A stretch of 64,000 bases of DNA from a virus. This document shows, one piece after another, positions 178-35,628 of the stretch. The notes beneath the pieces were generated by a model that ran no database searches, was not told the origin of the DNA, and saw only the letters and a list, made by a program, of their open reading frames with translations. Made by a program: the position numbers and the translations under genes. Each line of letters starts with the position of its first letter. Position 1 is the first letter of the stretch. The stretch lies in UHGV virus genome UHGV-0219032; one strand, 5' to 3'.

Positions 178-1308
178 TTATTTAATTAATTTTTCAAGAT
201 ATTCTAAAGATGTTTCTGTTGTATTAAATATTTTTAATAAATCTTTTGGTATATCTTTTAAATATTTATATGATAAATGTTCTTCGGTATTTAAACCAAT
301 AATACTTCCTTCTCTATTTTGATATCTCATACTCCTAATCATAAATGGTATATTTAAATAAATATATTGAGATTTAATATTATTTTTACTTAAATATGGG
401 TATAAATCATTATTAGCTGATATAGGGTCGATTGCATATAGATTTATTTTATTTTTATCAAAAGATGATTCATCAGCCCAAGAAACATAACCTTTTGGAC
501 TACAATATACAGCTATTGCATTTTTTCTATTTTTCTGCCAAAAATCATCATCAACAAATATGTGAGTGTTAATATCATTTGGGTCATCTTCTCTAATAAC
601 TCTTGTAGTATAAGATTTTACAGCATGAAATTTATCTGGGTATTGTTCAATTAATTTATTTATAAGTGTAGATTTACCACTTGCTGATTTTCCCATAATA
701 CATATTATACTACCATTAAAATCATTTTCTTTAATTTCAGAAAGATTATCCATAGTATCTAATAATTTACAATATAGTTCCCATGTTTTTGTTGCATCAC
801 ATAAAGCTGTGTGCATAGCATCATCTTCTTTTGACAAATTAAAATATTTAACCATATTTTCTAAACTAACATTTTTTGTAGTAATAATTCCAGCATCTGA
901 TAGGAATCTTGCTATTGTACAAGTATCTATATTTCTATAAGATACATATTTTTCCCATTCTTCTTTTCCTATATAGTGATGTATAAAACTTAAATCAAAT
1001 CCAACATTATGACCTATTACAGTAGGTTTTTGATTTTCACATAAAGCATATAATGTTTTAATAAAATGTATTACATGTTCAAAAGTATATTTGGCTTCAC
1101 TATCATGTTGAACTAAATCTATTTTATTTGTTTTTAATGCCCCTATGGAAACATTATATGTATCATATTTAAATTTAAACTCATTAAATGCTATTGGTTC
1201 TAATTTTCCTTTTTCACATAATAATATAGCTAATGTTAGCATTTGATTTCTTTGTGGTACTAATCCAGTTGTTTCACAGTCTATAACTAAATATTTATCT
1301 TTTTTCAT
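178..1308 (-). CDS. DnaQ-like DEDDh 3'-5' exonuclease fused to a guanylate-kinase-like (d)NMP kinase domain
   Basis: N-terminus has Exo I VIDCETTGL, Exo II HNVGFDLSF and Exo III HTALCDA. C-terminus has P-loop GKSASGKST and SYTTRVIREDDP...IFVDDDFW, resembling the guanylate kinase S-TTR-R/E-dY-F signature. Confidence 0.65.
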   Translation of the reverse strand: MKKDKYLVIDCETTGLVPQRNQMLTLAILLCEKGKLEPIAFNEFKFKYDTYNVSIGALKTNKIDLVQHDSEAKYTFEHVIHFIKTLYALCENQKPTVIGHNVGFDLSFIHHYIGKEEWEKYVSYRNIDTCTIARFLSDAGIITTKNVSLENMVKYFNLSKEDDAMHTALCDATKTWELYCKLLDTMDNLSEIKENDFNGSIICIMGKSASGKSTLINKLIEQYPDKFHAVKSYTTRVIREDDPNDINTHIFVDDDFWQKNRKNAIAVYCSPKGYVSWADESSFDKNKINLYAIDPISANNDLYPYLSKNNIKSQYIYLNIPFMIRSMRYQNREGSIIGLNTEEHLSYKYLKDIPKDLLKIFNTTETSLEYLEKLIK

Positions 1309-1486
1309 TATTTTCCTCCATTTTTGCTTCCATTAATTCTCTTCTTAATCTACTACCTCTTACAAGCCAAATATAAAGTGTTGCAAACCATATAGGTGGA
1401 AATAAACAACCCATAATAATACTATATTTTCTAGCCTTTTTATTTAATTCTATCTCATTTTCTAAAAATTGAATTTTATGATTCAT
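1295..1486 (-). CDS. small membrane protein
   Basis: 63 aa with a hydrophobic segment LFPPIWFATLYIWLV; overlaps the start of the downstream gene. Confidence 0.3.
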   Translation of the reverse strand: MNHKIQFLENEIELNKKARKYSIIMGCLFPPIWFATLYIWLVRGSRLRRELMEAKMEENNEKR

Positions 1487-6045: not shown

Positions 6046-6821
6046 TTTTTCCTCCTATATTTTTTAATCTATCTATTGAATATTCAAATTGCTTATCACT
6101 TAATTCTATTCCTATATATTGCATATTAATATTTATGCAAGAAACACCAGTAGTTCCTGTTCCATTAAAACAGTCTAGTATTAAGTCATTTTCTTTATAA
6201 TAGAAATCTAATAATTGATTGCATAAATCAGATGAATATGTAGCTTTGTTTAAATCACAAGAACCATCATTATTTTTAGCTTCAATAAAATTATAAACAT
6301 TTTCATAATTTGGTTGACCTGTTTTTCTATAACTTTTTATTTTTTTTATTTGTGTTGAAAGTTAAAAATTCATCTTTTCTAACAAATACATATATAAATT
6401 CAACAATTCTAGTTCTTTTATTTTTAGACATAGCATTTGGTGTAGCTGTTTTCTTTTTCCAAACTATTATATCTGCTAATGTATAATTTGTATCTGTAAT
6501 TATCTTGGAAACTGTTAATGGCATAGCTTCAGTATTTTCACTACCATATGACATATTCCATAATACACAAGTATCTTTTTTAAGTAATTTATCAAATCTT
6601 TTAAATATTTCACAACACCAAGATGTATATTCATCATTACTCATTCCATCATTATAGACATCATAACCTCTGTCATCTTGATTTGGTCTTATTATATTAT
6701 ATGGTGGAGATGTTAATACACCATCTATTTGAACATTATTTGCTATTAATAAATCCATTACTTCAATACAATCACCATTAAAAAATTTAATATTATTTTC
6801 TGAATAAAAATTATTAATCAT
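6036..6821 (-). pseudogene. beta-class DNA methyltransferase split by a +1 frameshift in a poly-A tract
   Basis: N-terminal part 6327..6821 (SPPY motif) is a paralog of the 3806..4687 N-terminus. The C-terminal part, in another frame from about 6036 to 6330, encodes DLILDCFNGTGTTG...IGIELSDKQF. The frames join across caaataaaaaaaataaaaag. Confidence 0.6.
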
Positions 6822-6918: not shown

Positions 6919-9900
6919 TTAAAATTCTACTTTACTCATAGATTTTATATAAGTATCAAATATTCCAGTTCCACCTTGCCATTTACCATCTACTAATTGT
7001 TTTCTTTCTTTAGTAATTTTATCATTTACAACTATAATATCATTATCATCTAATCCATCTAATATATCCTCTCTTTTAATTTTATATGTTTCAATCTCTC
7101 CATTTCTCATATTAAAACCTTTAAGGAAATATTGACTAGGAAATGGGTGTTCCAATGATAATACAAATAGTGCATCAAAATCTAACCAATCCATCTTTTT
7201 TGATGTTCTACCACATATCATTAGTTCATTTTTCATTTTTTCAACATATTCAAAATCATCTTCTGGATTTAATATATTTATTTGTTCTTTAATTAAACTT
7301 ATTTTTTTATCTTTAGTTTTTTGAGTTACTTTTTCGCTATATTTACAAGATTTATCATTAAAAAATATTTCAATAATATTCAATAAATATTTCTGTTTAC
7401 CAAAATTTCTAAAAAAATCAATTTTAATTAATATTGATAAATCTTTTTGAGATAAAGATAATTTGTTTTCTTTAACAAATATTAATAAATCTAAGAATGT
7501 TCCAATATCATTTGGAATACATTTAAGAGCATTATCTGCATTTTTAGATACACCTTTTAATCCAGATAATCCTTCATATATAATATTTTTATCTTTATCA
7601 TAAGAATATTCTTGAGAAAAGTTACCAAATACAGGTGATTCAATCACTATATCTGTTTCCTCTTTAATATATGTATATATTGATTTTATTTTTTCTCTTT
7701 TACTTTTAAATGTATTTAATGATGCTGTTATAAATTCTTTTGGATAATAACATCTAAAATATGCACATAAAAATCCAGTAATAGTATATGGTCTTGCATG
7801 TGCAATATTGAAAGCATAGTTTTCAGCATCTCTCATTATTCTAGCTACATGATTTAAAACTTTATCTGTATTTTCTCGAGTTTCTCCATAATGTTCCATA
7901 AAATATTTTGGGAATCTTTCCCTTAATTCTACTACTAATTTTTCAGTTCCGCCTTTTTTAGAAATTGTTTTTCTCGCATAGTCAGATTCAGCATTGGAAT
8001 ATCCACTAAATTCAGTTAAGAAATTCATAATATCTTCTTGATATATTAAATATCCATTATTATATGCAAATCTCTTATTGACAATATCACTACCTGTATC
8101 ATTTATTTTTCCACTAAATAATCCCTCTCTAATAGAATCTCCACATGGTCTAATAACTCCCGATACCGCTGTTGCGATATCTAACTTTTTCATTTTATCA
8201 TTATTTTTCAAAGCTCTTTTTAAATGATTAAATGCTTGGTCTTTTTCAAATTGGAATATCATAGTTCCATGTTTAGAATTTAAAATATGATTCCAAACAT
8301 TCATATCTTCAAAGTCTATATCATCTGGAGATGGTCTTTTAATACCTAAATATTCACATACTCTATTTATTGCTCCTATATTAGCTAATCCGAGAGCATC
8401 TACCTTTACATAACCCAACTCATCTACCTCTCTCATATCTAATTGAGTTACCCTTCTTCTTCTATTTAATTGTTTATCAAATGATGTTATGATTCCTATT
8501 TCTTTTTCTATATCTAAATCAGATACTAACATTCCACCAGCATGTATTCCAATAGACTTAATAAATCCATCTAAATCATCTACTTTTGCAAAGAAATCAG
8601 CATATTCTTCATCATCTCTATATTCACTAATATTTGCTAATATCTTTTCAACTTCACTTATTTCCATACCATAACTTCTACCCATAGAACGAATAGCACC
8701 TTTTTCAAGGTCTTTACCAAATGTAATTATTTCAGAACAATTTAAACCATCTCTACCATAAAACCATTCTTTAGCTTCTTGTCTCCTATCACTTTCTATA
8801 TCTGTATCAACATCGGGTAAACTTATTTTTTCTGGATTCATAAATCTAAAGAATAATGTTCCAAATTTAATAGGGTCTATTTCTGTTATACCCATTAAAT
8901 ATGCAACTATTGAACCATTTACAGAACCTCTACCAAATCCTGGATATATACCATGTTCTCTTAATCCATTAACCCAATCTGCAATCATTAACATATATGA
9001 TGATGATTTAAGATTATGAATTACTTGAATTTCTTGTACAATTTTTTTAGCTATCTCATCAACACATTGATTGCTATATACTGATAATTTCTTTTCATTA
9101 AATTTTTTTATACAAATTTCTGACATTTTTTTCGTTGCATCTTTATATATATTAGGCATTTTAAATCCTTTTTCTATGGTATATTCTTCAGCCATATCAT
9201 ATATTATATTTGTATTTTCTAATGCTTCTTTTGCTATTTCTGGAGATATACCAATATTTAATAATGCTGTGTACATTTCAGAATAACTTTTTAATTCTAA
9301 ATCTAATCCATCTTCATAAGAGAATGGCATTTTTTCAGCCTTTTGTTTTTCTTTTCTTAATTCTCCAGACATTTTATTATGATAATGAACGTCATTTGTA
9401 GCTACTATTTTAAATCCATATTCTCTACTTAGTTCAATAATAAAATTATTATGTTCGATTTGCTCTGACATATTATGTGGTTGTATCTCTAAGAAAAATC
9501 TATCTTTATTTTGTAACCCCCATTCTAATAATCTTTGGAAAACATAACTATCCTTATTATTTTTTCTTAATGCTGTCGCTAAACATGCTGTTGATACCGC
9601 TACATTTTTACATTCAAATAATTCATCTATAAAAAATGTTGGTCTTTTATAAAAATGATTATCCTTATAAGCATTAGATATTAATTGATTTATTTCTTTT
9701 CTACCTTCATTATTTAATCCATAAACTAAAATATGATAGTTGTTTTTATCATCTTCATTAGCTCTAGTATATCCTTCAAAAGCATGAACATATTTAAATC
9801 CACCCTCTTCTATTTCTTTTTTCTTTTTATACCAACCTAAAGTTGCTCCATGTTCAGTTATTATAATACCATGTAATCCTTTTTCTTTTGCCACAGTAAT

Positions 9901-10002
9901 ATAATCTTTTGTACTACTTGCACTATCAGTTAGTATATTATTACTTAATTGTGAATGTATGTGCATTGATACATATTTCATATTATTTATAATACCTCCC
10001 AT
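6919..10002 (-). CDS. dnaE: DNA polymerase III alpha subunit (DnaE-type)
   Basis: N-terminal PHP domain (MHIHSQLS...ITEHG) and the Pol IIIalpha motif GFGRGSVNGSIVAYLMGITEIDP. 1027 aa. Confidence 0.8.
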   Translation of the reverse strand: MGGIINNMKYVSMHIHSQLSNNILTDSASSTKDYITVAKEKGLHGIIITEHGATLGWYKKKKEIEEGGFKYVHAFEGYTRANEDDKNNYHILVYGLNNEGRKEINQLISNAYKDNHFYKRPTFFIDELFECKNVAVSTACLATALRKNNKDSYVFQRLLEWGLQNKDRFFLEIQPHNMSEQIEHNNFIIELSREYGFKIVATNDVHYHNKMSGELRKEKQKAEKMPFSYEDGLDLELKSYSEMYTALLNIGISPEIAKEALENTNIIYDMAEEYTIEKGFKMPNIYKDATKKMSEICIKKFNEKKLSVYSNQCVDEIAKKIVQEIQVIHNLKSSSYMLMIADWVNGLREHGIYPGFGRGSVNGSIVAYLMGITEIDPIKFGTLFFRFMNPEKISLPDVDTDIESDRRQEAKEWFYGRDGLNCSEIITFGKDLEKGAIRSMGRSYGMEISEVEKILANISEYRDDEEYADFFAKVDDLDGFIKSIGIHAGGMLVSDLDIEKEIGIITSFDKQLNRRRRVTQLDMREVDELGYVKVDALGLANIGAINRVCEYLGIKRPSPDDIDFEDMNVWNHILNSKHGTMIFQFEKDQAFNHLKRALKNNDKMKKLDIATAVSGVIRPCGDSIREGLFSGKINDTGSDIVNKRFAYNNGYLIYQEDIMNFLTEFSGYSNAESDYARKTISKKGGTEKLVVELRERFPKYFMEHYGETRENTDKVLNHVARIMRDAENYAFNIAHARPYTITGFLCAYFRCYYPKEFITASLNTFKSKREKIKSIYTYIKEETDIVIESPVFGNFSQEYSYDKDKNIIYEGLSGLKGVSKNADNALKCIPNDIGTFLDLLIFVKENKLSLSQKDLSILIKIDFFRNFGKQKYLLNIIEIFFNDKSCKYSEKVTQKTKDKKISLIKEQINILNPEDDFEYVEKMKNELMICGRTSKKMDWLDFDALFVLSLEHPFPSQYFLKGFNMRNGEIETYKIKREDILDGLDDNDIIVVNDKITKERKQLVDGKWQGGTGIFDTYIKSMSKVEF

Positions 10003-10589: not shown

Positions 10590-11183
10590 TTATAATTTTT
10601 CTAAAAAATCTTTTCTTGCATTGGTATTATTCCAATATTCTTTTAATTCTTTTTTAAATGCTTCTGTTTCATTATATCCACAACAATCAAATTCTGGACA
10701 TAGACCACCTCTGTAAATACATTCCTTAACACAAACAGTTCTTAATTCTGGTTCATTAGGAGCAACAACTTCATCTAAAAACTTAGTCCATGCTTCTCTT
10801 GTTTCTGGTGAAGCTTTAGTACATAATCTTTTTCTTGATATATAAATAATAGCTTGTGCATTAGCTTCACATTCATGGTTTACAGGTTCATCTTGTCTTA
10901 AAGCATTTCTATTTATACCAGTTCTATCTGTTCTTCTTGTTGAGACAAAATGTTCAATTCCATGTTTATGTCTAACAAAATGAACAGACACCCAACTTTT
11001 TAAATTTAACCATCTCCAACCAATTATTAATTTTCTAATTGGTGAATGTTCTGATATTAATAATCTTCTTTTATATTCTGATTCTGGGTATTTTCCTTTA
11101 TTTAAATTAATAGTATTTAATGTGGCATTTTTAATAGTTTGCCATCTATCAACATAATCTCTCAATTCAACTTTAAATGACAA
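10590..11183 (-). CDS. thyX: ThyX-like flavin-dependent thymidylate synthase (divergent)
   Basis: FVRHKHGIEHFVSTRR resembles the ThyX RHR-x7-9-S signature, with Lys replacing the second Arg. Has an unusual Cys-rich C-terminus. Confidence 0.5.
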   Translation of the reverse strand: MSFKVELRDYVDRWQTIKNATLNTINLNKGKYPESEYKRRLLISEHSPIRKLIIGWRWLNLKSWVSVHFVRHKHGIEHFVSTRRTDRTGINRNALRQDEPVNHECEANAQAIIYISRKRLCTKASPETREAWTKFLDEVVAPNEPELRTVCVKECIYRGGLCPEFDCCGYNETEAFKKELKEYWNNTNARKDFLEKL

Positions 11184-11661
11184 TTTTATCCTCCAATAAT
11201 TTAGTTATATCAATTCCATTTTTATATATTTTTTGATTAGAAGAACCAAAATATCTATAATCTCCTTTTAATTCTTCTTTATAAGCTCCACATATAATAT
11301 AGTCAACATAACTAGCAATATTTAAATTTTTAATATAATTCCACTCGTAACCACTCCATAACCATATATCTTTATTTGGATATTTTGTTTTTACATATTC
11401 ACATAATTCAATAACATCATTTACATTATATGGGGCTAATGGTTCTCCACCTAATATGGATAATCCACTTATATATTCATTATCTAATAATTCTATAATT
11501 TTATTTTTTGTATTTTCATCAAAATTTTTACCATAATTTTTATCCCAAAGTTGAGAGTTGTGGCAACCATTACATTGTAATGGACAGCCACTAACCCAAA
11601 GTGTGATTCTAATACCATCACCATTATTAAAATCACAAGTATCTATTTGAGTATATTTCAT
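11173..11661 (-). CDS. nrdG: anaerobic ribonucleotide reductase activating protein (radical SAM)
   Basis: CPLQCNGC (CxxxCxxC) cluster; immediately downstream of NrdD. Confidence 0.7.
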   Translation of the reverse strand: MKYTQIDTCDFNNGDGIRITLWVSGCPLQCNGCHNSQLWDKNYGKNFDENTKNKIIELLDNEYISGLSILGGEPLAPYNVNDVIELCEYVKTKYPNKDIWLWSGYEWNYIKNLNIASYVDYIICGAYKEELKGDYRYFGSSNQKIYKNGIDITKLLEDKIVI

Positions 11662-11669
11662 TATACCAC

Positions 11670-13748
11670 CTACATTGATTTTCTATCTTTTATTTCTGCC
11701 ATTTTTGCATCATTAAATGTTCTATCTCCATTTTTTCTACTAAATCCAAGATAACCACATGTTCTATTAATTTCAGTAATATTTTTACTTCCACAATGTG
11801 GGCAAGTTTCTCCCCAATCAGTTCCAGTTGTTCCACAATCCTCACATTGACAGGCATTAAAATTAACACCTTGATAGAATCCTAAATCCATTCCTCTTCT
11901 AATAATATCTTTTAATGCTTTAATATTTTTAGTATTTGGTATTCTAACATATTGAATGTGTCCGCCTGTAACTAATTCAAATATATCTATTTCTTTATCC
12001 TGTTTTTCAAAAGGTGTTATTTCTTCGCATACATGACAATGAAATGAATTACTGAAATAATCTTTATCAGATACACCTTTTATAGTTCCATATTTCTTTC
12101 TAAATTGTTCTACTTGAGTTCCACATAAACTTTCTGCTGGTGTACCATAAAGTGCATATAAGTAACCATCTAAAATTTTAAATTCATCAACTTTATTTTT
12201 TATATATTTAACAGTTGAATAAGCGAAACTATTATCTTCAGAAATAGGTTTTCCTGTTGCCAAAACTGATAATTCATTTAAAGCTGTAATACCAAAACTA
12301 GCTGTTGCTGATTTTAATATAGGTTTTATTTTATCAGTTGGTTTTAAATTACCACCATATGCACCACCCTCACAAAACATTAGTGGGTTAGAACTTGCTT
12401 CAGCTTTTCCTAAATATTCATATCTTTGAATATGTAATTCTCTTATCATTTGTAAATAATAATCTAAAACCTCATAAAATGGTTTATTTTCATATTTAGC
12501 TTTCATGTATATCATTGGTAAATTTAAACTAATAGCTCCTATATTAAATCTTCCAATAAATTGTAATTCTCCATTTTCATCTCTATAATCTGATAAATAA
12601 GCTCTACAACCCATAGGACTGACCCACTTACCTTCTCTTTTATGTAATTTTGGAGATAAGAAATCTGGGTACATACATTTAGAAGAGCATTGTACTGCTA
12701 AATCAAATAACCATTCATATTTTTTACCTTTTCCATGTATATCTGGATTATATAAGAAAACAAGTTTAGGGAATATAAGATTTTTCTTATGTCCTTTATC
12801 TCCATGTCCTTCCATTCTAACTTCAAGTATTGCTTTGCATATATCAGCTTCTAATTGATTTTGAACATCTCCAAATGTTAAAGTAGTAAATGGATATGAA
12901 CCTCTAGCACTAACAACTGTATTCATTTTTATTTCAAAACCTTGTAGAACTTGTTTTAATTCTATATATACTCTTTGTTTAACTAATTCTAAACACTCTA
13001 TATCCGACATATTAGAAATTTTACGTATATATTCATATTCTTTACGAATAGACATTTCATAATATTTTACAAGTATATTATGTACTTCTGGAATTGTATG
13101 ACCTCCAAAATGTTGTGCGGATATAATTTGAACTATATCTCCCATTTGTCCAACCGCTGTTCTTATATCCTTAGGTTCAGTGTACTTAATATCCTCAAGT
13201 TTAAAACCACCATTCAATATAGCTTTCATATCACACAATGTACAATTATATTGCGGAAGCAACATATCAGACAAATCATGAATATAAATATATCCATCTT
13301 TCATAGATTGAATAACATCAATAGGCAAAAACATTTTTTGATACATTTCTTTAGCAAATATTTTAGCTATTTCAGTTCTTTTTGTAGATATATACCTAGT
13401 ATTACTATTACTGTTACTTCTATCAACTTCAGTAAGCATTGAATGTACTTGTCTTTCTATATCATTGATAGTAGAATAAACAAATTCTTTTTTATAATTT
13501 CTATAATCTTTATATGATTTTGCAACTGATGGAGCAATTAAATCTAAAGACTTTTCAACATAACTATGAATAGTATCTACTGAAATATTAGCATTATCAC
13601 CTATCCATTCAACAACATTATTACATATTTCTTCTTCCTGAATATTTGATAATACATATCCTATTCTTTTTGCTGATTTTCTAATTGCTGATTTTATTTT
13701 ATCTTCATTATAATCTTCAATAGTTCCATTCTTTTTAATTACTTGCAT
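11670..13748 (-). CDS. nrdD: anaerobic (class III) ribonucleotide reductase
   Basis: C-terminal glycyl-radical motif RTCGYLG, the Zn-ribbon CEDCG...CPHCG, and 692 aa. Confidence 0.85.
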   Translation of the reverse strand: MQVIKKNGTIEDYNEDKIKSAIRKSAKRIGYVLSNIQEEEICNNVVEWIGDNANISVDTIHSYVEKSLDLIAPSVAKSYKDYRNYKKEFVYSTINDIERQVHSMLTEVDRSNSNSNTRYISTKRTEIAKIFAKEMYQKMFLPIDVIQSMKDGYIYIHDLSDMLLPQYNCTLCDMKAILNGGFKLEDIKYTEPKDIRTAVGQMGDIVQIISAQHFGGHTIPEVHNILVKYYEMSIRKEYEYIRKISNMSDIECLELVKQRVYIELKQVLQGFEIKMNTVVSARGSYPFTTLTFGDVQNQLEADICKAILEVRMEGHGDKGHKKNLIFPKLVFLYNPDIHGKGKKYEWLFDLAVQCSSKCMYPDFLSPKLHKREGKWVSPMGCRAYLSDYRDENGELQFIGRFNIGAISLNLPMIYMKAKYENKPFYEVLDYYLQMIRELHIQRYEYLGKAEASSNPLMFCEGGAYGGNLKPTDKIKPILKSATASFGITALNELSVLATGKPISEDNSFAYSTVKYIKNKVDEFKILDGYLYALYGTPAESLCGTQVEQFRKKYGTIKGVSDKDYFSNSFHCHVCEEITPFEKQDKEIDIFELVTGGHIQYVRIPNTKNIKALKDIIRRGMDLGFYQGVNFNACQCEDCGTTGTDWGETCPHCGSKNITEINRTCGYLGFSRKNGDRTFNDAKMAEIKDRKSM

Positions 13749-14575
13749 TAATCCTCCTTATAAAACTTATATACATTTTTAAATAATGATAATGTTGTAA
13801 GTATTCCAACACCACCAGGAACAGGTGTATAATTAATATTTGGATAATCTTTTTCAATTATATCTAATATTGGATATAATTCGCCATGTAATTTACCATT
13901 TTCTCCAACAAAAATACCAGTATCTATTATTGTTTTATTTTTAAAACATCTTAATCCATCTAAAACATTAGAAGTTAAATAATTATCTTTTCCTGTTGCT
14001 AGAATTATTATATCATTATCAAAAAATGATTTTTGTATATCTAATGGTGTTGATTTTGATGTTAAAATTTTTAAACTAGCAACCTTATCTATTAATAAAC
14101 TAGCTAAAGGTTTTCCTACTAATTTTCCTCTTCCAATTATTGCTACATTTAAATTACATAAATTATCTCCATGTAAATAATACAAATAATCTATAATACC
14201 TTTTGGTGTTGCTGGAACTACACCATTTATATTTCCATTATATATATCTCCATATTGAAAAAATCCATCTACATCAAAACCATAATCTAATTCTTGATTC
14301 TCATACTCGATTAATAATTCTGTATTATCAACAGGTAATTGTAATATACAAGGATTATACATATGGAATCTAGGTGGAAATAAACCATCAACAACTTCAA
14401 CATTAACACCCAACTCTTGTCCTACCTTAATTTTATTTTTAAGGTAGGATTTAGTTGCTCCATTTTTATCATTAGAATAAATAGTTAATGTTGGATTTTG
14501 TTTTTCTATTTTTTTAAAATTTTCTTTTAATATCTCTTTTTCTTTTTCAACATACTCTCTAACATTTAACTTCAT
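13748..14575 (-). CDS. folD: bifunctional methylene-THF dehydrogenase/cyclohydrolase
   Basis: TPVPGGVGILTT (the FolD PVPGGVGPMT motif) and a Rossmann GRGKLVGKP. Confidence 0.8.
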   Translation of the reverse strand: MKLNVREYVEKEKEILKENFKKIEKQNPTLTIYSNDKNGATKSYLKNKIKVGQELGVNVEVVDGLFPPRFHMYNPCILQLPVDNTELLIEYENQELDYGFDVDGFFQYGDIYNGNINGVVPATPKGIIDYLYYLHGDNLCNLNVAIIGRGKLVGKPLASLLIDKVASLKILTSKSTPLDIQKSFFDNDIIILATGKDNYLTSNVLDGLRCFKNKTIIDTGIFVGENGKLHGELYPILDIIEKDYPNINYTPVPGGVGILTTLSLFKNVYKFYKED

Positions 14576-14584
14576 AATTATCTC

Positions 14585-15094
14585 CTATTTTCCAGTTGAA
14601 CCAAAACCATTAGAACCTCTATTAGATTCATTTACTTCAGATACTATTTTTATATTTTTATATTTTCTAATAGCATTTATAACAACTTGAGCAATTCTTT
14701 CTCCTTTTTTAATATCAAATCCAATATCACTTGAGTTATTTAATATAACACCTATTTCTCCTCTATAAGCATTATCAATAGTTCCTAAGATAGCAACCTT
14801 TGATTCTTTTAATGAAGCTCCACTTCTTGGTCTTAATTGTGCTTCAATAATTTCAAGATATTCACCTTTATCTTCTGGTTGTGGTAATTCTAAATATACA
14901 CCAGTTGTTATTAAAAATGTTTTATGAGGATTAATTCTTACAGATTGTCCTTCATTTAATAAAACTTTTTGACCTAATTCATGATTTGGTTTTACCTCTC
15001 TATAACCTAATGCACATACATCATATCCACTATCAGTTTCATGAGCCGAATTAAACATAGCTCCATTATCTAATTTTACTTTTATTTGTTCCAT
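14585..15094 (-). CDS. dut: dUTP diphosphatase
   Basis: dUTPase motifs RPRSG, GTIDNAYRGE and the C-terminal RGSNGFGSTGK. Confidence 0.85.
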   Translation of the reverse strand: MEQIKVKLDNGAMFNSAHETDSGYDVCALGYREVKPNHELGQKVLLNEGQSVRINPHKTFLITTGVYLELPQPEDKGEYLEIIEAQLRPRSGASLKESKVAILGTIDNAYRGEIGVILNNSSDIGFDIKKGERIAQVVINAIRKYKNIKIVSEVNESNRGSNGFGSTGK

Positions 15095-23402: not shown

Positions 23403-23433
23403 TTTATTCCCTCCATTTTATTTAACTTTTATT

Positions 23434-23504
23434 TGAGAACAATAGGATTCGAACCTATATCCTTTACATAAAAAATGTATATTTTACCTTTAAACTATAT
23501 TCTC
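23434..23504 (-). tRNA. tRNA-like gene, anticodon UUU (Lys-like), non-canonical anticodon arm
   Basis: Minus strand gagaata...tgttctca has a good acceptor, a ggttcgaatcc T-arm and a gttt/aaat D-stem. The anticodon loop tttttta has U at position 37 and an A.A mismatch at the top of the stem. Confidence 0.45.
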
Positions 23505-23554
23505 ATACAAGACCCCAACTAAAGGGTCTAAATAAATAAACTAAATTTATCAAA

Positions 23555-25356: not shown

Positions 25357-27897
25357 TTAGAATGATTTTTCTTGAATACTCTCTGTAAAACCAACCTCAA
25401 ATAATGTTCCAAATTCTCCATTAAATTGATAAATAGTTGGAACTATTTTTGCACCATATCTATTCTTAGGCAAAAAGAATACAAGATATTTTTTATTACT
25501 TTCTAGCTCTTTAAACTCTTTTACGTATTTTCCAGTTATTTCATCTTTTTTTATTTTAAATACTTTAATTTCATTCTTTTGACCTGGATATTCATCTGGG
25601 TATAACTCTCTTCCAGTTATTAAAATATCTAAAATTTCAACTATTTGTTTAGAGCCAGATAGACAAGATTCATCATATATTCTTTTCATGTTTTGCTTTA
25701 AATATGATGCTATTTGATAAGATGCCATAACATGAACATTTAATTTTCTAGCTAACTCATATATATTTCTTGATTGCTGAACCAGTTTACCAACAGCAAG
25801 TTTATCTCCAGCATCTTCTGATTTCATGGTGTCTATTAAAAATTTAGTAAATCCCTTATGTGAGAATCTTCTCATAAGAATATTAAATTCAGCTATACTA
25901 TATCTACTTACACAATATAAAACTAATTTATCATTATAAGTAACATCAATATATCTTTGAGCTTCGGCAATTTTCATCATATATTCTTCATACTTTTCTT
26001 TTTCTTTTGTTTTTATCATATCCAATTCATTTAATTTTGTTCTGGTTAAATCATAATACTTTAAGTGTTTTGTTAATGTTCTTATTAATAACATATCCTT
26101 AAAATCATCTATTGCTGATTCATTGGAGTATATAAAAACTTTTTCTCCTTTATCTAAGAAATCTAACATAATTTCATTATAGTTAATTGTAGTATTATGA
26201 GTTACAATCATATTATCTGTTAGGTATGTATGAGTTGGAGAATCAACCATTATACATTGCATTTCTTTTTCTCCAATATATTCTATGTTAGTTATAGCTA
26301 ATAAATCTGTTCTTCTTTTTATCTTTCTATTTTGTGGAACTCTTGATTTATGTTTATCAGAATAAAATATTTCATCATAAGTTGAAATATTAACTATATA
26401 GCATTTTCCAAATTTATAATCTCTATTATCCTCTGTGTATGTTGCTCTATACCCCAATGTATGACACAATTGAATAATATCATCTCTTAACCTAATTGAC
26501 GTGGTTGTTATGTTTTTATTCCCGCTGATAGAATTTACACAACCATCTGTATCGAATAATCCTCTTAATAAATCCATTCTCTGCTCTATCGAACCACTCA
26601 TGTACTCAATAGGTATAAATTTTTCATGACTTCCCAATCCGAAAACTTGCAATCTTTTTAACTCTCTAATTATGTCATTTTTTAATGGGTTGGTCTGATT
26701 GCTAATATTATATGTATAGTTATTTGCATTATTTTTTGTAATTTTATAACCCATAGGTAATCTCTGTTTTATTCTCTCAACAATATCTAACTCATTACAA
26801 GAAAATTCAATTCTAGTTTTTATACTTCCATCTCCTAATAGACAGCCAAAGATATATGGGTCTATAAAATATTCTTTTTGTGTATATTGTAATGGTTTAT
26901 TAACAGGAATAAAAGTCTGATATGTATTTCCAGATATAATTTTTCTTTTCATTATTTCTTTTAATGTTTGAACTCTCCAATCATATTTCCCATTCTTTAA
27001 TCTCCATAAATTATTATTTACCCATAAATGCTCATCACAACACTCGACAGTTGAGCCATCTTTGAATGTAATTTTATATGATGGTTTCATACCCTGAGGG
27101 AATATTCCAGTTACATTATGAAGTTCTCCATTCATATCGTATATTTTATCGCCAATTTTAATATCTCCCATTCTAACATAACCATTTTTCGTAAACACAA
27201 GACTATCAAGAGGTTGTGCTTTACCATTATTCGTTGGCATAGCCAACATAGACATATTACCATTGTGCATACCTCTAGTAGCTTTACTAATTGAGAATAG
27301 ATTATAAGACATTCCTCTACCGACACCATTAATTTTAGATTGTATATAATCATTATCTATTCTTAATATAACAGGTTTAGTAGTGCTTACATCATTACAA
27401 TCTCTAGCTGTTTCCAATGTATCTTCAATCTTAAAAATAATATCTTCCAACGATTTTGTTTCTATATCATTATGTAACATACATATAGCTTCATACAATC
27501 CTCTATAAGTAGCTAATTTAGCATTAGCTTTCATTAATCCCTCAAAATGTGTTTCAAAGTTATTTGGAGAGAAATTTCTTCTTAAAGAATTTAAATGACC
27601 CATACCATTTAATGATATAAAATCATTTTTAAATTGTTCCCCTAATCTACTTAAAGCGGATTGTACACTACCAGTATCAAATTCTGTTGCTTTATGATTA
27701 TACATATCATTTAATAAATCATAATATGCTAAACCATCTTTTGTATGGAATAGATTTCTTCTACCTTGTACCTCAACCATTAAAGATAAATCATTAACTA
27801 GAGTTCCTATTACTCTAGCTTCATGGTCTGGAATTTCACTACATAAATGTTGTGGGTATTCTATTTGCATATTATTATACGTAAATGTTAAATTCAT
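25357..27897 (-). CDS. DnaB-like replicative helicase interrupted by an intein in the Walker A motif
   Basis: The extein reads ...MPTNNGK then TTINYNE..., reconstituting GxxxxGKT. Downstream SRNIYELARKLNVHVMASYQ is DnaB-like. Confidence 0.65.
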   Translation of the reverse strand: MNLTFTYNNMQIEYPQHLCSEIPDHEARVIGTLVNDLSLMVEVQGRRNLFHTKDGLAYYDLLNDMYNHKATEFDTGSVQSALSRLGEQFKNDFISLNGMGHLNSLRRNFSPNNFETHFEGLMKANAKLATYRGLYEAICMLHNDIETKSLEDIIFKIEDTLETARDCNDVSTTKPVILRIDNDYIQSKINGVGRGMSYNLFSISKATRGMHNGNMSMLAMPTNNGKAQPLDSLVFTKNGYVRMGDIKIGDKIYDMNGELHNVTGIFPQGMKPSYKITFKDGSTVECCDEHLWVNNNLWRLKNGKYDWRVQTLKEIMKRKIISGNTYQTFIPVNKPLQYTQKEYFIDPYIFGCLLGDGSIKTRIEFSCNELDIVERIKQRLPMGYKITKNNANNYTYNISNQTNPLKNDIIRELKRLQVFGLGSHEKFIPIEYMSGSIEQRMDLLRGLFDTDGCVNSISGNKNITTTSIRLRDDIIQLCHTLGYRATYTEDNRDYKFGKCYIVNISTYDEIFYSDKHKSRVPQNRKIKRRTDLLAITNIEYIGEKEMQCIMVDSPTHTYLTDNMIVTHNTTINYNEIMLDFLDKGEKVFIYSNESAIDDFKDMLLIRTLTKHLKYYDLTRTKLNELDMIKTKEKEKYEEYMMKIAEAQRYIDVTYNDKLVLYCVSRYSIAEFNILMRRFSHKGFTKFLIDTMKSEDAGDKLAVGKLVQQSRNIYELARKLNVHVMASYQIASYLKQNMKRIYDESCLSGSKQIVEILDILITGRELYPDEYPGQKNEIKVFKIKKDEITGKYVKEFKELESNKKYLVFFLPKNRYGAKIVPTIYQFNGEFGTLFEVGFTESIQEKSF
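26194..27219 (-). mobile_element. intein (342 aa) with a LAGLIDADG homing endonuclease domain, class-3-like
   Basis: Starts AQPLDSLVFT (Ala1, block A-like) and carries LAGLIDADG blocks FGCLLGDGSI and LLRGLFDTDGCV. Block F has a Cys (EMQCIMVD). Ends IVTHN, followed by Thr at +1. Confidence 0.6.
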
Positions 27898-27924: not shown

Positions 27925-28284
27925 TTATTGAGCCTTTATTTCCAATAATTTTTTATATATTTCTACCAATTTATCATCAAATTTTAACTTTTTAAATTCT
28001 TCAATAGATAAATCTTTTTCTGGTTCACAATAAGTTTTATTAATGTGTTCAATAAGTGCTTCTAATTTTTCAATATTATCTACATTAATAATTTTATCAT
28101 CTTCTGTATGATTTAATATAGCTATAAAATCAATACCCATGCCAGTTCTACTTAAAATAACTTTACTTGTTCCATTTTCAATAATTTCTCTTAATCTTTC
28201 ATAATCATTACATACAATGGTAACTAATTTTAAATCCTCTCTACCTTCAATATTTGAAAATTTTAAATCTAATAATTTTTGCAT
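27925..28284 (-). CDS. hypothetical protein
   Basis: 119-aa ORF. Confidence 0.3.
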   Translation of the reverse strand: MQKLLDLKFSNIEGREDLKLVTIVCNDYERLREIIENGTSKVILSRTGMGIDFIAILNHTEDDKIINVDNIEKLEALIEHINKTYCEPEKDLSIEEFKKLKFDDKLVEIYKKLLEIKAQ

Positions 28285-28331
28285 AATTATACCTCCTAAG
28301 TTTTATTTTTATTATATCATATTTTTATATT

Positions 28332-29510
28332 TTATGCAACACATTCTTCTGTTTCTGAATCTTCATATAATTTAACTTTTAATTCAAATCCTTTTATTTT
28401 ACAATATTTCTTAATAAATGAATATTCTTCTTGATTTGGATTTCTATTATACATTCCTTTTATTTGAACAATAGCATTATCACTTTCTCTATATTCCATT
28501 GTTATGAAAGATTCTTCTGGTTTTTCTCTCATAAATAAAATATGACATTTATTATCAATAACATGTTCTATATAACTTTTTACACAATGATGTAAATTTT
28601 CTCCTTCTTGTTTAACTTCATATGTTGTATATGGAATAGATACAAAATATTTTTTATCATTATATATAAAATCTTTTTCAGTATATTTACTTCTAAATAA
28701 ATTTTCATCATAAGTTTCCCTAAAAATACTATATTGTTTAGAAATTATATCATGATTTGATTTTAAATATTTTGGGTATTTTTCTATTGATTTAATAGAT
28801 TTATATGTTCCATCTGATTTTCTAAGCATCTGTTTTTTCATTCTATAATAATCTATTAAAAAGCTAGTTGCATTATCCCAATTTATATTTTCATATTCAC
28901 GAATATAATTTAAATATTTAATTAAATGTATATGATTATAATTATATTCATTAATTAATCTTGATATACGGTGTACATAATCTTCATAATAATTAGACAT
29001 AAAGTTTTCATTTAATTCAATATGAGCCATAACTATTTTATGAAATGTTTTATTATATATAGAATTAATATCACTAAGTTGATAATTAATTTTACCTAAA
29101 TATTTTAATATATTTTTAGGGCAATTTTCATATTCTTGACCTTCATAATGATATATTGAAAATTTAGTTAATTGAGATAAATCAATACCATAAGACATTA
29201 ATGATTCAAAATTCGAGTGATATTTTATTTTTGATAATAAATTACCTATACTATTAATGTTCCTTCCAGTTTGTCTACAATGTTTTCTTATTAATTTTAA
29301 TAATTGATATAAAATTTTATCATTTTCAAATAATTTTTCAACTTCATAAATTCTCATATTTTTAAAATACATAGCTAAACTTTTTCTTTGTTCATATTCT
29401 TTTTTTCCTTTTGGTATTACCCACATAGTTCCATCTTTTAAACTAAATTTTGCTTTACCTCTGTTTTCATCTTCAAAATATAAAATTCCATTTTCTTTTC
29501 TTAATTCCAT
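28332..29510 (-). CDS. hypothetical protein, PcfJ-like (tentative)
   Basis: First gene of the leftward arm. The C-terminal LHHCVKSYIEHVIDNKCHILFMRE is reminiscent of PcfJ-family proteins. Confidence 0.3.
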   Translation of the reverse strand: MELRKENGILYFEDENRGKAKFSLKDGTMWVIPKGKKEYEQRKSLAMYFKNMRIYEVEKLFENDKILYQLLKLIRKHCRQTGRNINSIGNLLSKIKYHSNFESLMSYGIDLSQLTKFSIYHYEGQEYENCPKNILKYLGKINYQLSDINSIYNKTFHKIVMAHIELNENFMSNYYEDYVHRISRLINEYNYNHIHLIKYLNYIREYENINWDNATSFLIDYYRMKKQMLRKSDGTYKSIKSIEKYPKYLKSNHDIISKQYSIFRETYDENLFRSKYTEKDFIYNDKKYFVSIPYTTYEVKQEGENLHHCVKSYIEHVIDNKCHILFMREKPEESFITMEYRESDNAIVQIKGMYNRNPNQEEYSFIKKYCKIKGFELKVKLYEDSETEECVA

Positions 29511-29578
29511 TTTAATCTTCTCCTTATCTCACTTCCGACACAAATGATACAACAGAACATTTGAGGTCTCCGCTTTAT

Positions 29579-29607
29579 TGATACTGTAATTATACAACAA
29601 AAATTAT
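29579..29607 (-). promoter_or_regulatory. leftward consensus promoter (TTGACA, 17 nt, TATAAT)
   Basis: Perfect -35 and -10 hexamers on the minus strand with a 17-nt spacer, about 70 nt upstream of the 28332..29510 gene. Confidence 0.55.
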
Positions 29608-29908
29608 TTTATGTCAATATATTTTTTAAAATTATTTTATGACCTTTTAAAATCCATTTTAAAGAGTTTATATTTAATAGTAGACTAATTTATTATTGAA
29701 ATGTTTGTAGGGGTGTTATCTTTGGGATAGTAAGGTGTCAGTTTAAATTTATGTGGTAAAATACTCCCGGATTTTTTTACTTAAAATCAAAAATCTTTTC
29801 ACAAAAAGTTTTTGCATTTTTAAGTGGAAATATTAGTTTTCTTTTAGTAATAATATTAGTATTGACAGCGTATTACCTTGTCTATCTAAGGGAAAACGTG
29901 AAATCGGG

Positions 29909-29964
29909 TCACACTTAGTTACCAAAAATCACACTTAGTTACCTTTAAATCACACTTAGTTACC
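29909..29964 (+). repeat. three direct 15-bp repeats TCACACTTAGTTACC (iteron or operator array)
   Basis: Exact copies starting at 29909, 29929 and 29950 (20-21 bp spacing), ending 28 bp upstream of the rightward promoter. Confidence 0.6.
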
Positions 29965-29992
29965 AAAGATAAAAAATACATAAATCATTATA

Positions 29993-30021
29993 TTGACAAA
30001 AATGTAATATTATGCTATAAT
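29993..30021 (+). promoter_or_regulatory. rightward consensus promoter (TTGACA, 17 nt, TATAAT)
   Basis: Perfect hexamers, then RBS ggaggg and ATG at 30052. Confidence 0.6.
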
Positions 30022-30051
30022 AATTTTATAGAATAATATTGGAGGGAATAT

Positions 30052-30294
30052 ATGAGTAAAATTATTAAAAGAGTATTTAGCAAATCGAAAGCAAATGATT
30101 TAATTTCTATGGGTAATACTCTGTTAAAAACAGAAAAAGATTATATAAAACCAAAAAGAGAAATTTATATATTTGAAAGAACTGATAAATTAATCAAAGA
30201 TTTGTCCGCTCTTCATAATATATATATAAAAAATAAAACAATAGGAGTGCGAAATGAAAAATATAATAGTGGAAAATTATTTAACAATTCATAA
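30052..30294 (+). CDS. hypothetical small protein, first gene of the rightward arm
   Basis: 80-aa ORF with a strong promoter and RBS. Confidence 0.35.
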   Translation: MSKIIKRVFSKSKANDLISMGNTLLKTEKDYIKPKREIYIFERTDKLIKDLSALHNIYIKNKTIGVRNEKYNSGKLFNNS

Positions 30295-31069
30295 AGAATT
30301 AATAGGAAAACAAATTAATTTATCAAAACCAAATTCTATATTATTATTTATGGAAGTTTGTAGAATAAAACAAATGGAGATTAAAGCATTACAAAATAAT
30401 TTCCAAAAAAATATAGATAATGATTTAATAATTAATAAGAGTAGATTGGAAAATATAATTGATAAAGCATTAATAAAACAAAATATAAAAATTCAAAATC
30501 TTATTGATGATTTTAATAATGGCTCATACTTCATAAATAAAGATGGAGAGATTATTGAAATCATAGAATTTATAAATTTTTATAAAAATACTGGAGAAAT
30601 TGAAGTAGTATTTAATATGGAAAATTTTATAAAATATTTTATAAATATAAAAGACAATTTTACAAAATTACCATTAGAATATTTTAAGGGGATTAAAAGT
30701 AAAAATGTTACTATGTTGTTAATGTATATAATGAAATATAGTAATGTGAAAAATGTATTTATACCAAATAGTGATTTATTATTTTTATTAAATATAAATA
30801 AAAATAATAAATTATCTCACTTGAATCAATCTATAAAAAGAGTCATAGAACAAATTAAAAAAATAAATTTAGATGAGTTAAAAAAATTAAATATAGAAAA
30901 GAATAAAAATAATAACTTTGATATTAAATTTTCTAGTTTTGAAATAAATATTATAATGGAAAATAAAAAAGATATAATTATTAAAAAAACAGAAAATAAA
31001 AAAGATGAAAATTGCAATTTTACAGAGAGTGAATTAGCAATTTATACAGGAGGTTATAATGATAATTGA
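30254..31069 (+). CDS. hypothetical protein, candidate iteron-binding Rep or regulator
   Basis: 271-aa ORF directly downstream of the iteron array. No catalytic motif recognised. Confidence 0.3.
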   Translation: MKNIIVENYLTIHKELIGKQINLSKPNSILLFMEVCRIKQMEIKALQNNFQKNIDNDLIINKSRLENIIDKALIKQNIKIQNLIDDFNNGSYFINKDGEIIEIIEFINFYKNTGEIEVVFNMENFIKYFINIKDNFTKLPLEYFKGIKSKNVTMLLMYIMKYSNVKNVFIPNSDLLFLLNINKNNKLSHLNQSIKRVIEQIKKINLDELKKLNIEKNKNNNFDIKFSSFEINIIMENKKDIIIKKTENKKDENCNFTESELAIYTGGYNDN

Positions 31070-31361
31070 TTCAAAAATTAAAGGTGTTGTATGGATAAAC
31101 AATTCAAAGAATAGCAAATATTCAAATGGTATTATTTATGCTACATGTGGAAAACAAATTAAATTTATTCATTTTAAAGAGACAGATGATTTGTATGTCA
31201 ATTTAAATAAAGAAGAAGATAAATATGATACTTATGTTGGAAAGGCTAAAATTTTTGGTTTTAAAAATAAACTAAAAAATAAATTAACAAGTCCAGATTT
31301 CTACCTAACAAGAATAAGTATTGAGTTTATAGATGTTGGAAATATAGAGGAAGAAATATAA
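31059..31361 (+). CDS. hypothetical protein
   Basis: 100-aa ORF. Confidence 0.35.
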   Translation: MIIDSKIKGVVWINNSKNSKYSNGIIYATCGKQIKFIHFKETDDLYVNLNKEEDKYDTYVGKAKIFGFKNKLKNKLTSPDFYLTRISIEFIDVGNIEEEI

Positions 31362-34340: not shown

Positions 34341-34416
34341 ATGGGTTGTAGCTCAATAGGTAGAGCATTGGTCTGTTAAACCAAATGTAGAGGGTTCGAT
34401 TCCCTCCAACCCAGCC
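34341..34416 (+). tRNA. tRNA-Asn (GTT)
   Basis: Acceptor tgggttg/caaccca, anticodon loop ctGTTaa, T-arm gagggttcgattccctc, encoded CCA. Confidence 0.8.
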
Positions 34417-34421
34417 AAATA

Positions 34422-34510
34422 TGGTAGGTTATCCTAAATGGCTAAGGAGCTGGTCTTGAAAACCAGTAAATGTGAAAGCATGTAAGAGTTCGAGTCTCTT
34501 ACCTACCTCC
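34422..34510 (+). tRNA. tRNA-Ser (TGA)
   Basis: Acceptor ggtaggt/acctacc, anticodon loop ctTGAaa, long variable arm, T-arm aagagttcgagtctctt. Confidence 0.75.
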
Positions 34511-34514
34511 ATAA

Positions 34515-34600
34515 TATGTAGTTGGTGGAATTGGAATACACGTGGTGCTTAGAACACCATTCTTAAAAAGATTGAGAGTTCAAATCTCTCACTACATACC
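34515..34600 (+). tRNA. tRNA-Leu (TAG)
   Basis: Acceptor atgtagt/actacat, anticodon stem tggtg/cacca with loop ctTAGaa, long variable arm, T-arm gagagttcaaatctctc. Confidence 0.75.
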
Positions 34601-34602
34601 AA

Positions 34603-34676
34603 TAGATGTGTAGTTTAATGTAAAACATCAGACTCCAAATCTGAAAGTTATGGGTTCGAGTCCTATCGCATCTGCC
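34603..34676 (+). tRNA. tRNA-Trp (CCA)
   Basis: Acceptor agatgtg/cgcatct, anticodon stem tcaga/tctga with loop ctCCAaa. Confidence 0.75.
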
Positions 34677-34770
34677 ATAAAAGTTATTAATGAAAGGTAC
34701 ATACAGCAATTAATTAATTTTCTATAAATAATGGTTTTAGGGATAGAATAGAATATAGTACCTTGAAATT

Positions 34771-35322
34771 TTGGGTTTTAACTGTATTATAAGGGAAGTG
34801 ATATATATTAATAATATAGTTTATATAAAACATTTTGATAATGGTAAGAAATATATTGGTATAACAAATAATTTTAAAAGAAGAATGTATGAACATATAA
34901 AAAGTGCATATAAAAATAATAGTAAACTTCCTGTACATAATGCCATGAGAAAATATAATCATACAACAGAAATTGTATTTATGAGTAACTGTTATGATGA
35001 TGTTTTAAAAATGGAAAAGATTATTATAAAAAATTTTAAAGATATTGGAATTGATTTATATAATATTACAGATGGAGGAGAAGGAAGTTTAGGATTAAAA
35101 GTATCAAATGAAACAAAATTAAAAATTAGTAATTCTTTAAAGGGAAATAATAATCCACGTTCAAGAACTAAAGAACATTATGCTATAACTCCAACTATGA
35201 GAAATAATTTTAAGACTACATGTAAACGTATGGGTTGGGATTTTAATTATTTTATTGAAGTATATAGCGGTCAAAATAGTCATGAACATAAAAAGTATTA
35301 TTATATTGAAAAATTTATGTAA
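34771..35322 (+). CDS. GIY-YIG homing endonuclease inserted in the tRNA cluster
   Basis: VYIKHFDNGKKYIGIT...R...E...N (GIY-YIG core). Paralog of the 56414..57382 N-terminus. Confidence 0.7.
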   Translation: MGFNCIIREVIYINNIVYIKHFDNGKKYIGITNNFKRRMYEHIKSAYKNNSKLPVHNAMRKYNHTTEIVFMSNCYDDVLKMEKIIIKNFKDIGIDLYNITDGGEGSLGLKVSNETKLKISNSLKGNNNPRSRTKEHYAITPTMRNNFKTTCKRMGWDFNYFIEVYSGQNSHEHKKYYYIEKFM

Positions 35323-35372
35323 AACCGGCTGTTTAAGTACATAACTTGGTTCGATTCCAAGAACACTCACCA
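35323..35372 (+). pseudogene. orphan tRNA 3' half (T-arm, acceptor 3' strand, CCA)
   Basis: cttggttcgattccaag, aacactc, a, cca begins 1 nt after the endonuclease stop. No matching 5' half (gagtgtt) found in the window. Confidence 0.4.
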
Positions 35373-35375
35373 TAT

Positions 35376-35624: not shown

Positions 35625-35628
35625 AAAA

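Follow-up and report, generated by a model that had tools for sequence, protein, structure and literature searches.

A DEDDh exonuclease fused in frame to a guanylate-kinase-like domain in a tailed phage: a possible nucleotide-salvage enzyme

We analysed a 64,000-nucleotide stretch of the virus genome UHGV-0219032 (the window), in which a single gene joins a DEDDh 3'-5' exonuclease to a guanylate-kinase-like domain. Terminase, tail sheath, tape measure and baseplate genes mark the window as that of a tailed phage; its GC content is about 25%, and its genes are organized in two divergent arms. The fused gene occupies positions 178..1308 of the minus strand (stop codon 178-180), starts with ATG and encodes 376 amino acids. 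Its Shine-Dalgarno sequence, GGAGG, is located at 1315..1319 (minus), 6 nt upstream of the ATG. An upstream open reading frame (ORF) of 63 amino acids (1295-1486) runs 14 nt into the start of the fused gene. A sequence-only reading of this DNA had reported the same 376-residue ORF without giving its strand, and all of the motifs that it quoted are present at the residues to which it assigned them.

The exonuclease domain covers residues 1-185 (754..1308, minus). It matched the complete Pfam RNase_T profile (PF00929; residues 7-179, profile positions 1-164 of 164, E 1.6e-10, 42.2 bits against a cut-off of 24) and phrog_192, annotated as 'DNA polymerase exonuclease subunit' (E 2.5e-26). The Exo I motif DCETTG lies at residues 10-15 (1264..1281, minus), the Exo II motif HNVGFD at residues 100-105 (994..1011, minus) and the Exo III motif HTALCDA, of the DEDDh subtype, at residues 166-172 (793..813, minus). 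All five DEDDh catalytic residues are present. In an alignment of 12 sequences of the clade, D10, E12, H166 and D171 are invariant, and D105 is conserved in at least 90% of the sequences. The NCBIfam profile of PolC (NF001688) was matched with E 2e-16, and the sequence matches in the PDB included 8h18 (DnaQ) and 2p1j (PolC exonuclease). In a Foldseek search, the AlphaFold2 model of the domain resembled RNase T (3va0, 3v9u and others) with a template modelling (TM) score of about 0.72 over the full domain length. These matches place the N-terminal half in the DEDDh (DnaQ-like/RNase_T) superfamily of 3'-5' exonucleases, in agreement with the DnaQ-like motifs that had been read in residues 1-190.

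The DEDDh fold and the three Exo motifs are shared with DnaQ and with the exonuclease domain of PolC. Unlike DnaQ, the window exonuclease does not have a C-terminal segment for binding the polymerase alpha subunit or the clamp, and its gene is not next to dnaE. Its scores are far under the DnaQ equivalog cut-offs (TIGR01406, 32.8 vs. 222.7 bits; NF004964, 46 vs. 236 bits). The stand-alone homologues of about 190 amino acids stop right after the Exo III helix, which is where the kinase directly follows in the fusion, and an epsilon-like C-terminal extension was found neither in the fused protein nor in these homologues. RNase T and oligoribonuclease are DEDDh enzymes which trim the 3' ends of single-stranded DNA or RNA to mononucleotides. 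They are the best structural matches of the window exonuclease, at a sequence identity of 18-20% and with 41 bits against the 246 bits required by TIGR01298.

The second domain, residues 200-376 (181..711, minus), is a predicted (deoxy)nucleoside monophosphate ((d)NMP) kinase of the guanylate kinase (GMK) fold. It matched phrog_1815, 'guanylate kinase', with E 4.6e-17 (residues 200-354, profile positions 4-155 of 197). The Pfam profile Guanylate_kin (PF00625) was also matched above its cut-off (27.6 vs. 25.2 bits), but over profile positions 4-61 only. When the kinase half and its stand-alone relatives were combined into a profile, this matched the Plasmodium falciparum GMK 1z6g (E 3e-11, profile positions 5-167). 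The C-terminal domain modelled alone gave a predicted local distance difference test score (pLDDT) of 91 and a predicted TM score (pTM) of 0.87. All of its 50 best Foldseek matches in the PDB are guanylate kinases or GMK-like domains, the closest being closed, GMP-bound GMKs (TM about 0.73 over the full domain length). Thus, each half matched its own family, as the sequence-only reading had proposed.

We compared the kinase half with 63 relatives (64 family members in all) and with yeast GMK (1gky/1ex6). The Walker A motif GKSASGKST is at residues 206-214 (G206...G211-K212-S213-T214; 667..693, minus), with G211 and K212 present in 63 of the 64 members. The motif S232-Y-T-T-R236-V-I-R239 (592..615, minus; SYTTRVIRE, residues 232-240) corresponds to S34, R38 and R41 of yeast GMK, which we take to be ligands of the NMP phosphate together with Y50 and Y78; S232 is invariant, and R236 and R239 are each conserved in 63 members. 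A family-specific motif, D242-P-N-D245-I-N-T-H249 (562..585, minus), precedes the motif IFVDDDFW at residues 250-257. Its D245 is found in 63 members, and its invariant H249 takes the place of Y50. Y268 (63/64), Y274 (64/64) and D294 (64/64) are other near-invariant positions. Three arginines that align with the GMK lid region, R325, R328 and R332 (313..336, minus), are kept in 59-61 members. The residue aligned with yeast E69, presumably the ligand of guanine N1/N2 in GMK-GMP structures, is V267 here and L, V, T, M or I throughout the family, as judged from an alignment of sequences rather than a superposition of structures. The register of the Y78/S80 loop against yeast GMK is ambiguous by one residue.

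The fold and P-loop are common to the window kinase and cellular Gmk (PF00625, EC 2.7.4.8), and the S-x-TTR-x-x-R motif, I-D aspartate and lid arginines appear to be so too. The window kinase differs from Gmk in the hydrophobic residue at the E69 position, the histidine in place of Y50 and the DPNDINTH motif. Its score is far below the equivalog cut-off of TIGR03263 (31.2 vs. 160.45 bits). The guanylate kinase signature reported earlier is only partial, because a hydrophobic residue stands family-wide at the position of E69. The conserved motifs suggest that the kinase half is likely to be catalytic. Its base specificity is probably not that of cellular Gmk, because the position of the presumed guanine-binding glutamate is not conserved. 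The match to phrog_139, 'deoxynucleoside monophosphate kinase', was limited to the P-loop (E 0.025), and no match of the whole protein to the T4 or T5 dNMP kinase was found by tblastn in 50,697 phage records. Other phage kinases of phrog_1815 belong to the same family, Fusobacterium phage Fnu1 gp98 being 36% identical over residues 201-345. They stand alone or carry a DUF7695 zinc ribbon, a NUDIX domain or unknown domains, and none is joined to an exonuclease. To our knowledge, no phrog_1815 member has been biochemically characterised. The zinc-ribbon-like DUF7695 domain is C-terminal in the GMK-like kinases P0004-P0007 and P0043, and C-terminal extensions of 160-220 amino acids with no Pfam match are found in P0020 and P0021.

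The two domains are connected by a disordered linker of about 14 residues (residues 186-199; 712..753, minus). The AlphaFold2 model of the full-length protein has a pLDDT of 86 and a pTM of 0.56, and the pLDDT of residues 191-195 is below 50. By homology to the junction of two separate genes in a relative, the linker corresponds to the C-terminal tail of the exonuclease gene followed by the first codons of the kinase gene. That relative is contig L007. The closest stand-alone exonuclease found by phmmer (P0016; 190 amino acids, 66% identity) is encoded there at 8001-8573, directly followed by a 184-amino-acid kinase gene at 8573-9127; the closest stand-alone kinase is P0017 (184 amino acids, 56% identity). 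The gene order of L007, polymerase III alpha, ligase, exonuclease and kinase, is that of the window. The L007 junction, caGGAGGataaaTAATGaataaa, combines a TAATG stop/start overlap with a Shine-Dalgarno sequence that lies within the terminal part of the exonuclease gene, the classic layout for translational coupling. Its two peptides read ...LLQEDK* / MNKLNGGIVCIMG. The corresponding peptides are read through in a second relative, L001 (...LLQYSNKNIKGGVVCIMG), and in the window (...LLDTMDNLSEIKENDFNGSIICIMG), and neither of these junctions retains a Shine-Dalgarno sequence or a usable internal start for the kinase. A third state is found in L009, whose kinase is a stand-alone gene preceded by an AT-rich intergenic region of its own. 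From the coupled genes of L007, the read-through of L001 and the window, and the state of L009, we conclude that two co-translated genes became fused recently, and only in this lineage, when the intergenic signal that separated them was lost.

The fused protein and nine further full-length variants of 376 amino acids, at least 90% identical, were recovered from about 25 contigs of independent ENA and Logan assemblies. An ortholog of 375 amino acids (P0002; 79% identical) is likewise fused on further contigs, one of which is 72.6 kb long. The junctions of the two lineages differ in sequence, yet both are in frame. We estimated the ratio of nonsynonymous to synonymous substitution (dN/dS) between the window protein and this ortholog with the simple Nei-Gojobori method for two sequences. 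At a dS of about 0.44, dN/dS was 0.13 for the exonuclease, 0.42 for the kinase and about 1.4 for the linker (residues 183-199). Purifying selection thus acts on both halves, whereas the linker is drifting, and both domains have therefore been kept functional in the fused state.

The fusion is real but very rare. In an exhaustive phmmer search of 1.84 billion representatives of 50%-identity clusters, which gave 2570 hits, about 1,500 of them of the exonuclease type, only the query's own cluster spanned both halves among the best 150; the rest of these 150 were exonucleases of about 190 or kinases of about 180-260 amino acids. The tblastn search of the deposited phage records gave single-domain matches only. 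With Foldseek, no BFVD protein matched both domains, and the long alignments had root-mean-square deviations of 15-23 Å. No close relatives emerged when IMG/VR, JGI metagenomes and GTDB genomes were scanned with the protein or with alignments of the clade. We found no paper that describes a fusion of a DEDDh exonuclease with a guanylate kinase. The earlier statement that the two domains normally occur separately therefore stands, and the domain-architecture search that had been suggested confined the fusion to one cluster within the hits considered.

The fused gene is one of many replication and nucleotide genes in the minus arm of the window. This arm also encodes an ATP-dependent DNA ligase, DNA methyltransferases, a DnaE-type polymerase III alpha, a primase, a Sak4-like ATPase, a PD-(D/E)XK nuclease, RuvC and an intein-containing helicase. 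The nucleotide-supply genes are clustered at 11173..15094 (minus) and comprise NrdG (11173-11661), NrdD (11670-13748), a FolD-like gene (13748-14575) and dUTPase (14585-15094). The Pfam match of the FolD-like protein is to the C-terminal NAD(P)-binding domain of tetrahydrofolate dehydrogenase/cyclohydrolase only. No second NMP kinase was found in the annotated part of the replication arm, which also holds several ORFs without annotation. The DnaE-type polymerase (6919..10002, minus; 1027 amino acids) has no DEDDh domain. We aligned its PHP domain (region 9100-10002, minus) with that of Taq polymerase III alpha. All nine PHP metal ligands are kept (H14, H16, D26, H51, E76, H90, C140, D204 and H206), which suggests that the phage DnaE has an intrinsic PHP-type proofreader. 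The DnaE proteins of Thomasclavelia, Clostridioides and Bacillus phages share only 34-36% identity with that of the window, which thus represents an uncultured lineage; the kinase is 36% identical to that of Fusobacterium phages.

We surveyed the gene directly downstream of the exonuclease at six loci where a member of the clade stands alone. It encodes the GMK-like kinase in L007, an overlapping thymidine kinase in L018, FolD with a TAATG overlap in L019, a CYTH protein in L003, a dATP/dGTP diphosphohydrolase with an overlapping start in L024, and a product of no assigned function in L023. In this downstream position, a polymerase gene was found at none of the six loci and a nucleotide-metabolism gene at five. 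Most of the exonuclease genes are coupled by overlap, or nearly so, to the downstream gene. FolD-like genes recur in the relatives, beside the exonuclease in L019 and beside the kinase in L004. The kinase family also has a second, independent fusion, with an N-terminal NUDIX hydrolase in P0019 (E 4e-8, above the Pfam cut-off). The product of a NUDIX hydrolase is a nucleoside monophosphate.

DEDDh exonucleases release 5'-(d)NMPs, which are what NMP kinases phosphorylate. We lean, with confidence only modestly above an even balance, to the reading that the fused gene encodes a bifunctional nucleotide-salvage enzyme. The data show the architecture, the intact catalytic motifs of both domains, the origin of the fusion, its persistence under purifying selection and its genomic context; we infer both activities, their substrates and any gain from tethering from the domain families and their genomic setting. 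Two neighbouring phage genes whose translation was coupled became one when their stop/start signal was lost. In the salvage scheme, the DEDDh domain would remove nucleotides from the 3' ends of nucleic acids and release 5'-(d)NMPs, its candidate substrates being host DNA fragments, oligonucleotides or RNA. The GMK-fold domain would then convert the (d)NMPs with ATP to the diphosphates ((d)NDPs), which would feed the phage dNTP supply (NrdD/NrdG, dUTPase and FolD) and the DnaE replicase. Tethering would act by proximity or by a fixed 1:1 stoichiometry rather than through a demonstrated channel. We favour salvage because of the coupled-gene origin, the nucleotide-metabolism neighbours, the NUDIX fusion and the complete PHP site of DnaE, and because the exonuclease has no epsilon-like tether and scores far under the DnaQ cut-offs. 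A scavenging module had also been pictured in the sequence-only reading, and this idea now has indirect support that it did not have earlier. That reading was right about both domains, about how rare the architecture is and about the phage setting, but not about a full guanylate kinase signature.

Several observations weigh against salvage or limit it. No fixed interdomain interface is predicted and the linker is disordered, so direct channelling is unsupported. The substrate of the exonuclease may be DNA or RNA, and a route from RNA through NMP, NDP and NTP into the NTP-reducing NrdD is equally conceivable. The kinase half is evolving about four times faster than the exonuclease half. Adjacency or fusion of the two genes is seen in one narrow lineage only; elsewhere the kinase adjoins FolD, a metallophosphoesterase or a polymerase, or stands alone with its own intergenic region. 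The neighbourhood evidence comes from a small sample of six loci and is weak, because genes for replication and for nucleotide metabolism lie together in phage genomes in any case. An endonuclease dedicated to host DNA was not found in the replication arm, where several ORFs are without annotation. Finally, the best sequence matches of the exonuclease are to the PolC, DnaQ and DinG exonucleases, and its PHROG label is that of a polymerase subunit.

This last point also favours a different role, in which the exonuclease would be a trans-acting, epsilon-like proofreader of the phage DnaE, and the kinase would re-phosphorylate excised or local dNMPs at the fork. The dNTP-synthesis enzymes of T4 associate with the replisome, and the fused protein would be a hard-wired version of such an arrangement. 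In line with this role, the phage DnaE has no DEDDh domain of its own, the best NCBIfam, PDB and PHROG matches are to PolC exonuclease, DnaQ and 'DNA polymerase exonuclease subunit', and the fused gene shares the replication arm with dnaE at a distance of about 5.6 kb, in a gene order common to L001 and L007. Against it are the lack of an alpha- or clamp-binding extension in the fusion and in the 190-residue homologues, the 32.8 bits scored where the DnaQ equivalog requires 222.7, and the absence of a polymerase gene beside all six stand-alone members, five of which are followed by a nucleotide-metabolism gene. In addition, DnaE need not rely on a DEDDh proofreader since all nine of its PHP ligands are intact. 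Bacteria proofread by one of two means, DnaQ or the PHP domain (PMC11348249). A mycobacterial DnaQ homologue nevertheless works alongside the PHP proofreader as a second proofreader (PMC11348249), a precedent with which the intact PHP domain is compatible. The proofreading role is therefore only weakened by the intact PHP site, and we regard it as unlikely but worth serious consideration.

The fusion may also be a neutral accident, in which a small indel joined two overlapping genes and the enzymes work independently, with neither gain nor coupling from being tethered. A single small mutation would turn the TAATG overlap into read-through, the linker is disordered and unconstrained, the kinase is alone in close relatives, and the architecture is confined to one 50%-identity cluster among the hits considered. 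However, two sublineages have kept the fused frame over a dS of about 0.44, neither of them has regained a stop or an internal Shine-Dalgarno sequence, and the same kinase family is also fused to an NMP-producing hydrolase, the NUDIX protein. The persistence of the frame and the NUDIX fusion argue for an advantage, although they do not prove one, and we consider a purely neutral origin rather improbable.

It is still less probable, and in our view quite doubtful, that the C-terminal domain does not phosphorylate ordinary mononucleotides at all, being instead a GMK-like binding module of the MAGUK type, a polynucleotide 5'-kinase that repairs ends together with the exonuclease, or a kinase whose substrate is non-canonical. 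Such a role would fit the unconserved guanine-glutamate position, the histidine in place of Y50, the partial Pfam and NCBIfam GMK matches far under the equivalog cut-off, and the presence of the MAGUK domains 3ney and 1kgd among the structural matches. Against it, the Walker A lysine, the S-x-TTR-x-x-R motif, the aspartate of 'AID' and the three lid arginines are near-invariant in the 64 members, whereas non-catalytic GMK-like domains have typically lost catalytic features of this sort. In addition, the model fits closed GMP-bound GMKs best, and the neighbours in the genomes are nucleotide-metabolism genes. A sequencing or assembly artefact, which had been a worry of the sequence-only reading and in favour of which nothing was found, is ruled out for practical purposes by the about 25 independent contigs with an identical or at least 90% identical protein, the fused 79% ortholog on further contigs and the differing but in-frame junctions.

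The salvage reading has a counterpart in phage T4. The T4 DexA exonuclease scavenges host DNA (PMC12153337), and T4 requires its own dNMP kinase (PMC6071114). By analogy, a 3'-5' exonuclease that degrades to mononucleotides would be followed by a phage dNMP kinase in both systems, as two separate proteins (DexA and gp1) in T4 and as one polypeptide here. The same tblastn search gave no match to T4-like dexA or gene 1 at E<=1e-5 (6 hits in all), and no DexA chain was among the PDB sequence matches of the exonuclease at E<=0.01. Because T4 gp1 (1DEK) belongs to the thymidylate-kinase-like group and not to the GMK group (PMC10653934), the window kinase represents a lineage other than the classical phage dNMP kinases.

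Other features of the region were noted. In the relatives, the stretch downstream of the exonuclease-kinase locus (L001 11904-13377; L007 10489-16573) encodes PAPS-reductase-like, YAcAr, DUF488 and Pyr_excise-like proteins, a nucleoside deoxyribosyltransferase-like protein, a nicotinamide mononucleotide (NMN) transporter and dCMP deaminase. These genes make up an extended cassette for nucleotides or DNA modification, placed beyond the left end of the window. An HNH homing endonuclease gene (1701-2549, minus; 282 amino acids; phrog_953, E 9e-42) is located between the ligase gene and the 63-residue and exonuclease-kinase genes; it looks like a mobile insertion because the equivalent gap of L001 has no such gene. 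A 164-amino-acid ORF at 6327-6821 (minus) matched only the N-terminal half of N6_N4_Mtase (profile positions 1-118 of 221) and may represent a methyltransferase that has been truncated or split; the corresponding region of L001 encodes methyltransferases of 263 and 370 amino acids.

Inteins and homing endonucleases were found at several other sites. The 846-amino-acid protein at 25357-27897 (minus), with PHROG matches to DnaC-like loaders and DnaB-like helicases, is broken by a LAGLIDADG region (Pfam LAGLIDADG_3/Hom_end, residues about 428-506) and is probably an intein-containing replicative helicase. A UvrD-like helicase at 31532-34093 (plus) is interrupted by an intein, matched by Intein_splicing at residues 214-532 and equipped with a LAGLIDADG_2 endonuclease, and the polymerase III alpha of L007 (1434 amino acids) carries one with Hint, Intein_splicing and LAGLIDADG_3 matches. 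Eight tRNA genes are present, at 34342-35875 (plus) and 23433-23505 (minus). The cluster contains a GIY-YIG/NUMOD3 endonuclease gene (34771-35322), and the ARAGORN tRNA at 35375-35450 has an abnormal two-base 'anticodon' (ga). Between the tRNA cluster and terminase, a protein of 436 amino acids (36343-37653, plus) matched phrog_850, 'RNA-binding protein' (E 7.5e-56). The sign change of GC skew and the switch between the arms coincide at about 28000-31100, together with a PcfJ-like gene (28332-29510, minus) and a weak match to a Rep3-like initiator (30254-31069, plus), and this is a candidate replication origin region.

On present evidence the fusion is restricted to one lineage and joins two common phage genes, and its predicted function is unsurprising. 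Gene fusions are, however, among the few clues from sequence alone that two proteins work together. The small DEDDh exonucleases of phages, a large family of which little is understood, are tied by this one to the phosphorylation of nucleotides and not to the polymerase, and it points to a divergent phage GMK-like family whose base specificity is probably unlike that of cellular Gmk. Read as a 'Rosetta stone', it tentatively suggests that the widespread phage DEDDh exonucleases of about 190 amino acids annotated as polymerase exonuclease subunits may be salvage nucleases, and that the GMK-fold family may be a (d)NMP kinase of broad or altered specificity which repeatedly teams with NMP-producing hydrolases. 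If so, host nucleic acid or nucleotides would be converted directly to (d)NDPs by a route apart from the T4 gp1/T5 dNMP kinase lineage, and hundreds of phage genes now labelled 'polymerase exonuclease subunit' or 'guanylate kinase' would have to be re-annotated. The fused protein would then be a compact enzyme leading from nucleic acid to (d)NDP in one polypeptide, directly comparable with the naturally split pair of L007. The main value of the finding lies in the functional link that it suggests between two under-characterised phage families, and in this natural comparison of fused and split forms.

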